Shown: one piece after another, positions 1 to 940 of the stretch
Layout of the letters: every line of letters begins with the position of its first letter
How positions within the stretch are numbered: position 1 is the stretch's first letter
Assembly (NCBI RefSeq): GCF_003334315.1
Contig: NZ_QOWR01000126.1
Length of the DNA stretch: 979 nucleotides
Strand: one strand, 5' to 3'
Origin: Escherichia coli
Lineage (GTDB): Bacteria; Pseudomonadota; Gammaproteobacteria; Enterobacterales; Enterobacteriaceae
Position numbers and translations under genes: made by a program
The notes under the pieces: generated by a model
Told to the model about the DNA's origin: nothing
The model's input: the letters and a program-made list of their open reading frames with translations, nothing else
Database searches by the model: none

Positions 1-438
1 AGGCCGCAGTCGGTAACCTCGCGCATACAGCCGGGCAGTGACGTCATCGTCTGCGCGGAAATGGACGAACAGTGGGGATACGTCGGGGCTAAATCGCGCC
101 AGCGCTGGCTGTTTTACGCGTATGACAGGCTCCGGAAGACGGTTGTTGCGCACGTATTCGGTGAACGCACTATGGCGACGCTGGGGCGTCTTATGAGCCT
201 GCTGTCACCCTTTGACGTGGTGATATGGATGACGGATGGCTGGCCGCTGTATGAATCCCGCCTGAAGGGAAAGCTGCACGTAATCAGCAAGCGATATACG
301 CAGCGAATTGAGCGGCATAACCTGAATCTGAGGCAGCACCTGGCACGGCTGGGACGGAAGTCGCTGTCGTTCTCAAAATCGGTGGAGCTGCATGACAAAG
401 TCATCGGGCATTATCTGAACATAAAACACTATCAATAA
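1..438 (+). CDS. insB: IS1 transposase InsB segment (C-terminal part of the InsAB' frameshift fusion transposase); 5'-partial, frame open from base 1
   Basis: The ORF track gives 61..438, but frame 1 is open with no stop from base 1, and the upstream 20 codons ([20 protein letters not shown]) also match InsB. The ATG at 61 is therefore an internal Met, not the real start. From established knowledge, IS1 transposase is made by -1 frameshifting from insA into insB at an A6C motif, which would lie just upstream of this window. Stop TAA at 436-438 lies inside the terminal inverted repeat, as is typical for IS1. Confidence 0.9.
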
Positions 439-453
439 GTTGGAGTCATTACC
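431..453. repeat. IS1 right terminal inverted repeat (IRR), about 23 bp
   Basis: ATCAATAAGTTGGAGTCATTACC; the element terminus ...CATTACC at 453 matches the canonical IS1 end from memory. The partner IRL is outside the window, so the inverted-repeat relationship cannot be checked here. Confidence 0.75.
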
Positions 454-467
454 TATGTAAGGATAAT
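440..467 (+). promoter_or_regulatory. Candidate outward-facing hybrid promoter across the IS1/flank junction (-35-like TTGGAG in the terminal repeat, -10-like GATAAT in flanking DNA)
   Basis: TTGGAG at 440-445 (3 of 6 matches to TTGACA), 16-bp spacer, GATAAT at 462-467 (5 of 6 matches to TATAAT). Motif-level only and weak. Confidence 0.2.
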
Positions 468-543
468 CAAACATCGTGTGCGCTGATGGCAGAGTAGGTG
501 GAGGACTCCAGACAGTCAAACGATAGAAAAAGATAGCCTTTAT

Positions 544-548
544 GGAGG
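544..548 (+). promoter_or_regulatory. Shine-Dalgarno (GGAGG) for the yibA-like gene, 8-nt spacer to ATG 557
   Basis: GGAGG at 544-548, followed by 8 nt, then ATG at 557, which begins MSNTYQKRK... Confidence 0.55.
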
Positions 549-556
549 TTCCTGCA

Positions 557-802
557 ATGTCAAATACATACCAGAAAAGAAAGGCAAGTAAAGAGTATGG
601 TTTATATAATAAATGTAAGAAACTAAATGATGATGAATTATTTCGCTTACTTGATGATCGCAATTCCTTGAAAAGGATTTCATCTGCCAGAGTATTACAG
701 TTAAGAGGGGGGCAAGACGCTGTTAGATTGGCAATTGAATTCTGCACTGACAAAAATTATATCCGTAGAGATATCGGAGCATTTATACTCGGGCAAATAT
801 AA
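557..802 (+). CDS. yibA: YibA-like HEAT-repeat protein, N-terminal 81 codons terminated by a premature in-frame TAA (truncated product if expressed)
   Basis: Translation MSNTYQKRKASKEYGLYNKCKKLNDDELFRLLDDRNSLKRISSARVLQLRGGQDAVRLAIEFCTDKNYIRRDIGAFILGQI matches my recollection of the E. coli K-12 YibA N-terminus with a few substitutions. The ORF track starts at ATG 542 (MEVPAM...), but that ATG overlaps the Shine-Dalgarno, so 557 is the better start. Stop TAA at 800-802. Confidence 0.65.
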   Translation: MSNTYQKRKASKEYGLYNKCKKLNDDELFRLLDDRNSLKRISSARVLQLRGGQDAVRLAIEFCTDKNYIRRDIGAFILGQI

Positions 803-940
803 ATTTGCAAAAAATGCGAAGATAATGTTTTTAATATTTTGAACAATATGGCATTGAATGATAAGAGTGCTTGCGTTCGAGCTACGGCAATCGAGTCAAC
901 GGCCAGGGAAAGATCATCAAAAGTTCACTTTTTGCACTAA
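557..940 (+). pseudogene. yibA: yibA-like gene disrupted by a nonsense codon (800-802), with a second stop at 938-940 after similarity is lost; likely a pseudogene
   Basis: Same frame downstream of the TAA reads ICKKCEDNVFNILNNMALNDKSACVRATAIESTA (803-904), still YibA-like as I recall it. It then reads RERSSKVHFLH and stops at 938-940, far short of the roughly 280-aa length I remember for intact YibA. Confidence 0.5.

Follow-up and report, generated by a model that had tools for sequence, protein, structure and literature searches.

The closest described system is the pair formed by RhsA of Escherichia coli K-12 and the product of yibA, the open reading frame downstream of rhsA. According to Vlazny & Hill 1995, as related in Poole 2011 (PMC3150448), the C-terminal region of RhsA blocks the recovery of cells from stationary phase, and yibA neutralises this C-terminal toxicity. 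Zhang 2012 (PMC3482391) lists Ntox34 among the toxins carried by RHS proteins and gives 'Imm-HEAT' as its immunity partner. An Ntox34 tip is also found on the PAAR-Rhs effector Nte2 of Neisseria cinerea, whose toxicity in the cytoplasm of E. coli is neutralised by the cognate protein Nti2 (PMC8263058). The attribution of RhsA immunity to yibA goes back to 1995, and the Ntox34/Imm-HEAT pairing to 2012. In addition, hypersensitivity to nalidixate, UV and H2O2 has been described for yibA::Tn5 mutants (PMC2824699); this is what one would expect if the loss of immunity unmasked the toxicity of the RhsA C-terminal region (RhsA-CT), a link that is our own.

The RhsA-CT (the C-terminal 130 residues after DPLGL) matched Pfam Ntox34 (PF15606) with E = 1.9e-43. 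K-12 YibA is the HEAT-repeat protein of PDB 1OYZ, and the full-length protein gave three Pfam HEAT_2 matches, all within residues 138-275, in line with the repeats expected in a preliminary description of the locus. The reading of YibA-type HEAT proteins as the immunity partners of Ntox34 Rhs tips is supported and was already known. According to the literature, YibA of the intact family binds or neutralises the Ntox34 domain of RhsA inside the cell that produces it. A protein named 'EcYibA' in a 2026 Toxins paper (PMC12945103) appears in a passage on the NADAR/YbiA hydrolase; the name is probably a misspelling of YbiA, and the paper was set aside as having no bearing on yibA.

A further point of comparison is provided by the orphan rhs-CT/rhsI modules (PMC2935791, PMC3150448), which typically keep a substantial CT fragment with core homology together with an intact immunity gene. 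Here, we describe a copy of the 5' part of yibA that lies between two insertion sequences in E. coli.

Organization of the Locus

The window, that is, the whole stretch of 979 nucleotides that was analysed, contains the following features.

1..453, + strand: 3' part of IS1, a 100% match to IS1A/IS1B copies in E. coli genomes, also supported by the ORF list and sequence reading
61-438, + strand: insB reading frame within IS1
to 453, + strand: right terminal inverted repeat of IS1, ending ...GGAGTCATTACC at 453
454..504, + strand: spacer after the yhhH stop of the rhsB locus, identical to K-12 (L001) 5999-6049; the right edge of the DUF4329-tip/yhhH cassette
505..536, + strand: stub of an Ntox34-type Rhs toxin tip, the last 10 codons (..SRQSNDRKR), with TAG at 534-536
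537..556, + strand: toxin-immunity spacer of 20 nt (sequence reading), spaced as in K-12 rhsA-yibA
544-548, + strand: Shine-Dalgarno GGAGG, 8 nt ahead of the ATG
557..903, + strand: yibA' pseudogene of the yibA type (Imm-HEAT), codons 1-116, with TAA at 800-802 (codon 82)
543..610, + strand: right-hand breakpoint interval of an rhsB-to-rhsA-locus cassette exchange in other E. coli
904..979, + strand: left end of ISEc1 (ISAs1-family 'H-repeat', H-rpt), identical to the K-12 DNA that leads into yhhI

The ISEc1 transposase gene yhhI begins outside the window, past 979. From 454 to 979, the window was 100% identical to the rhsB locus of K-12 MG1655 and to all of the other rhsB loci fetched, and the relic showed no polymorphism, with every fetched rhsB-locus copy being identical. 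In the K-12 rhsB locus, which runs nikR - rhsB - yhhH - PGAP pseudogene - yhhI (ISEc1 transposase) - yhhJ, window position 454 aligns with the second base past the yhhH stop. The spacer at 454-504 showed no homology to K-12 rhsA in the alignment; it is also identical in a second allele of the rhsA locus, form ii (L030), described below. The stub at 505-536 aligns to the end of K-12 rhsA (..HSRQSNDKKR*). Because both flanks (454-504 and 904-979) match the rhsB locus and not rhsA, the AT-rich frame is assigned on sequence grounds to rhsB, between two insertion sequences, and it is not the yibA of the rhsA locus. The window does not reach the DNA on the left side of IS1, and rhsB and yhhH were seen in the reference rhsB loci, not here.

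The base composition was as first described. The preliminary description had given by-eye figures of about 23% and 60% GC for 601-660 and 61-120, and the counted values were the same (0.233 and 0.600, respectively). By segment, the GC content was 0.552 in IS1 (1-453), 0.349 at 557-903 and 0.276 at 904-979. No Rfam family matched in the window, and promoter-like and terminator-like sites in the window were no more frequent than in shuffled sequence.

Anatomy of the yibA' Relic

In a gapless alignment, the segment at 505-903 corresponds to K-12 sequence that runs from the final 32 nt of rhsA through the 20-nt spacer into yibA as far as codon 116. The two differ at 11 of 399 positions, which confirms the YibA likeness proposed initially. 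Over 557-903, the nucleotide identity to the first 116 codons of K-12 yibA was 97.7%. The eight differences in 347 nt comprise three missense, four synonymous and one nonsense change, the last converting AAA in yibA to TAA in the relic at codon 82 (800-802). The frame at 557-940, which had been presented as a single gene, is composed of 81 codons, the stop, 34 further yibA codons and IS-derived sequence running to a chance stop; the yibA homology ends at 903, and 904-940 belongs to ISEc1. The ISEc1 copies elsewhere (ydcC and ybfD loci) match the window from about 897-905 onward, placing the boundary at ~903/904.

The relic keeps 116 of the 280 codons of yibA, and the stop at 800-802 and the end of homology at 903 leave no uninterrupted ORF of ~280 codons. 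Since the relic lacks ~60% of the protein, and with it each of the three strong HEAT_2 units, it would be unable to neutralise Ntox34. The conceptual 116-residue fragment scored 160 bits against NCBIfam NF007244, below the curated whole-protein cut-off of 275 bits, compared with 463.8 bits for full-length K-12 YibA. A single marginal HEAT_2 match (E = 0.001) was found in the fragment, and the three stronger units of YibA (residues 138-275) were absent. As to the PBS-lyase side of the initial repeat assignment, full-length YibA gave a weak HEAT_PBS match (E = 0.018). Judged from its alignment, the relic clearly belongs to the YibA family by descent, as a fragment only.

The PGAP annotation calls the relic a pseudogene in five genomes ('lyase / HEAT repeat domain-containing protein; internal stop; missing C-terminus'). 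The name given to the pseudogene (L001 6102-6452 and its equivalents) varies, being 'lyase' in some genomes and 'HEAT repeat domain-containing protein' in others.

We place the probability at about 0.9 that 505-903 is a non-functional Rhs toxin/immunity relic at rhsB, which consists of the final 10 codons of an Ntox34 tip together with codons 1-116 of the cognate HEAT immunity gene. Immunity, which had been suggested for this gene, holds for the YibA family as the partner of Ntox34; it is not supported for the copy in the window, which is dead and follows a 10-codon stub.

Comparison with Known Systems

The relic resembles K-12 yibA (dsORF-a1, PDB 1OYZ) in its 97.7% identity over codons 1-116 and in having the same spacer, the same Shine-Dalgarno sequence and the same toxin-tip ending. 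Unlike K-12 yibA, it carries the nonsense codon 82, is truncated by ISEc1 at codon 116 of 280, sits at the rhsB site and has no intact Ntox34 tip, since the last 10 codons alone remain directly upstream.

As in the orphan rhs-CT/rhsI modules, the relic is AT-rich, appears to be the remnant of an older pair, and lies downstream of the main rhs tip and its cognate immunity gene in the reference rhsB loci. The relic, with 10 toxin codons and a dead gene, falls short of the substantial CT fragment and the intact immunity gene of typical orphan modules. The homology to rhsA begins 32 nt before the stop, and the relic has neither core sequence nor a PxxxxDPxGL or DPxGL motif. On the immunity side, it retains a Shine-Dalgarno sequence and an ATG ahead of a broken, truncated frame. 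Its parent module is of the Ntox34/Imm-HEAT type (PMC3482391), and the window holds one fragment per partner.

The form-ii rhsA locus is identical over the 103 nt at 454-556 and has the same gene order. It differs from the relic in carrying a full-length yibA identical to that of K-12, followed by yibJ/yibG instead of ISEc1. Overall, the relic is ordinary genomic debris that has already been annotated.

YibA Homologues and Their Neighbours

The YibA family is small, and the synteny survey covers a handful of contexts.

Salmonella L004 and L006: YibA 74% identical; an orphan Rhs fragment with an Ntox34 tip 79% identical ends ~20 nt upstream, in a VgrG-Rhs array
Snodgrassella alvi L028 and the bee-gut-like metagenome contigs L009 and L010: YibA 44% identical; Ntox34 tip 41-43% identical
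L011 (4955-6879): 41-43% identical; two tandem HEAT paralogues in an rhs orphan array, with no Ntox34 detected upstream
L007 (7001-7855) and L008 (2947-3837): 44-51% identical; among housekeeping genes (prc-like protease, recC and others), with no rhs within 6-7 kb

The homologues followed Ntox34 tips in K-12, Salmonella and the Snodgrassella-type contigs, in agreement with an immunity pairing. The identities of YibA and Ntox34 fall together, as expected of cognate pairs. The preliminary description had taken homologues found mostly away from rhs loci as a sign against immunity. Two such homologues were indeed found (L007 and L008), with no Ntox34 nearby, and these two are no refutation of the pairing; either could be an orphan immunity gene or could have another role. 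A scan of species-representative genomes for YibA relatives returned four loci, two of which were E. coli contamination in MAGs. Its additions were Snodgrassella alvi and a weak partial relative (L029) with 32% identity over half of the protein and no rhs nearby.

In Salmonella enterica L004 (5855-9271), the orphan Ntox34 tip and YibA homologue are followed by an orphan DUF4329 tip and an Imm-NTF2-2 protein. This cassette order is opposite to that in E. coli, and all of these genes are downstream of VgrG and the main Rhs gene.

IS1 and the Timing of Inactivation

The end of IS1 lies 103 nt upstream of the ATG of the relic, and the ORF is not interrupted by IS1. The exact 81-residue product of the relic was present in 9961 blocks in the assembly collection. 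In all ten of the places listed, the order was rhs - yhhH (Imm-NTF2-2) - 81-residue product - ISEc1 or a remnant of it - yhhJ; the rhs tip ahead of the product was DUF4329 in nine of the ten, and IS1 was absent beside the relic in each of the ten. As the same dead allele is found in E. coli without IS1, the death of the relic by TAA and ISEc1 truncation predates the IS1 in the window, and, by this comparison, IS1 is not the inactivating agent.

The IS1 copies in the rhsB locus of other strains were positioned in the rhsB tip, in yhhH, in yhhI, or between the relic and yhhI. The exact IS1/rhsB junction (453/454, 2 nt past the yhhH stop) was absent from 5426 complete E. coli genomes, in which each full-coverage match consisted of two separate pieces with IS1 at other sites, and it was absent from the metagenome contigs too; a Shigella or an IS1-rich strain is a possible source. 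The junction may have arisen by simple IS1 insertion or by deletion, and the window alone fits both. A 9-bp TATGTAAGG duplication to the left of IS1, beside yhhH, would indicate simple insertion, whereas any other arrangement would point to loss of the rhsB tip and yhhH through a deletion or inversion mediated by IS1.

Cassette Exchange between the rhsA and rhsB Loci

The rhsA locus (yibF ... yibH-yibI-mtlA) has two alleles in E. coli. The K-12 form, in which the Ntox34 tip is followed by yibA, was found in 1741 of the 5426 complete E. coli genomes. Form ii was found at the rhsA locus in 1185 of the 5426 (about 22%), and is ordered as rhs with a DUF4329 tip, yhhH, the same spacer and stub, and an intact yibA. 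The yibA of form ii is an orphan, without its cognate toxin in the locus.

The form-ii example compared with the window was the rhsA locus of E. coli FORC_069 (L030, 2659-8196), whose rhs gene is itself annotated as a pseudogene containing an internal stop. The yibA of this locus is nucleotide-identical to K-12 yibA, and the 103 nt preceding its ATG show no difference from window 454-556. Site-by-site comparison showed a mosaic. The upstream region and the 5' part of the gene are rhsA-locus-like, and the left breakpoint lies in the shared rhs core. The tip, yhhH, spacer and stub, up to window position 542, are rhsB-locus-like (3 mismatches in 1214 nt). An uninformative interval of 68 nt follows (window 543-610), and from window position 611 onward there were 0 mismatches in 293 nt against K-12 yibA, compared with 8 in 293 against the rhsB relic. 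The mosaic, with its switch in 543-610, implies that the homology between yibA and yibA' served as the right arm of a double crossover or gene conversion. The demonstrable consequence of the relic is limited to its DNA homology: with the rhs core, it brackets the DUF4329/yhhH cassette, and it has acted as a recombination arm for cassette swapping between the rhsA and rhsB loci.

In a rare form-ii rhsA locus (L012, 1353-1925), yibA has a 270-nt in-frame internal deletion and encodes a product of 190 residues. The deletion apparently occurred between short TGATA repeats, and may represent decay of an orphan immunity gene.

Inferred History of the Relic

The 10-codon Ntox34 stub is directly 3' of a 51-nt spacer that belongs to the DUF4329-tip/yhhH cassette, and the tip now neighbouring the relic at rhsB is DUF4329, with yhhH as its partner. 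Because the stub abuts this spacer, which is the signature of C-terminal displacement (PMC2935791, PMC3150448), we infer that such a displacement took place. In the order suggested by present-day arrangements, an rhsA-like element with an Ntox34 tip and yibA would once have occupied the present rhsB locus. A DUF4329 tip with yhhH would then have displaced the Ntox34 tip and left the old immunity gene as an orphan, which presumably lost its function through the AAA-to-TAA change at codon 82 and the ISEc1 truncation at codon 116. In the genome sampled, IS1 would later have landed, or caused a rearrangement, 2 nt past the yhhH stop.

Alternative Interpretations

The frame was initially taken to be yibA of the rhsA locus, an immunity candidate lost together with rhsA through IS1. 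The high identity to K-12 yibA and the IS1 directly upstream fit this account; however, the flanks at 454-504 and 904-979 match the rhsB locus, where the copy sits downstream of yhhH, the TAA and the ISEc1 truncation occur in genomes without IS1 at this position, and IS1 stops 103 nt short of the ATG. Neither the rhsA location nor the joint inactivation could be upheld, and we regard the account as highly improbable. It is also very unlikely, in our view, that the N-terminal peptide of 81 residues (557-799) is expressed and functional, with partial immunity or a role in stress. Its Shine-Dalgarno sequence and ATG are intact, its exact sequence is extremely widespread, and the yibA::Tn5 mutants show the hypersensitivity noted above (PMC2824699). 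Against this, the peptide represents less than 30% of YibA and does not include residues 138-275, the region of the HEAT_2 matches, and clonal inheritance of an identical locus accounts for its spread. Moreover, no promoter-like site lies ahead of the frame, and the IS1 in the window separates the frame from the rhsB-yhhH transcription unit.

The database names imply a lyase of the PBS-lyase type, as NCBIfam NF007244 is called 'putative lyase' and a weak HEAT_PBS match is present. The similarity is, however, limited to HEAT repeats of a generic kind, designed alpha-Rep/armadillo binders are the best PDB relatives after 1OYZ, and the genomic partners are Rhs toxins and not phycobiliprotein genes, so that a lyase has next to no chance of being the correct reading. 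Membership in the PBS-lyase HEAT-like proteins of the CpcE/NblB type was rejected, with HEAT_PBS at E = 0.018 and the NblB model at 26 bits against a cut-off of 300. The possibility that the relic persists as useful DNA, providing with the rhs core a downstream homology arm for the movement of tip/immunity cassettes, deserves more weight. The mosaic of L030, with its switch inside window 543-610, and the occurrence of form ii in 1185 of 5426 genomes are in its favour. Nevertheless, these data represent one inferred event that may have spread clonally; they show use and not selection for retention, and the present comparison leaves the direction of transfer undecided. To judge from the title of Zhao & Hill 1995, cited in PMC3150448, the reshuffling of Rhs components is also an already known theme. 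We therefore consider this reading possible but somewhat doubtful. A non-functional toxin/immunity relic at rhsB remains the preferred interpretation.

Significance

For annotation, the database name 'lyase' is misleading, the correct locus is rhsB and not rhsA, and IS1 was not what killed the gene. The breakpoint mapped inside the relic is a modest addition, which shows Rhs tip/immunity cassettes moving between loci within E. coli. We tentatively suggest, while giving it rather less than even odds, that the relic and the rhs core acted as a landing pad for the exchange of the DUF4329 tip and yhhH, giving rise to the orphan-yibA allele present in ~22% of genomes. If this were general, the range of Rhs toxin repertoires that can be assembled would be shaped by the relics that old immunity genes leave behind.
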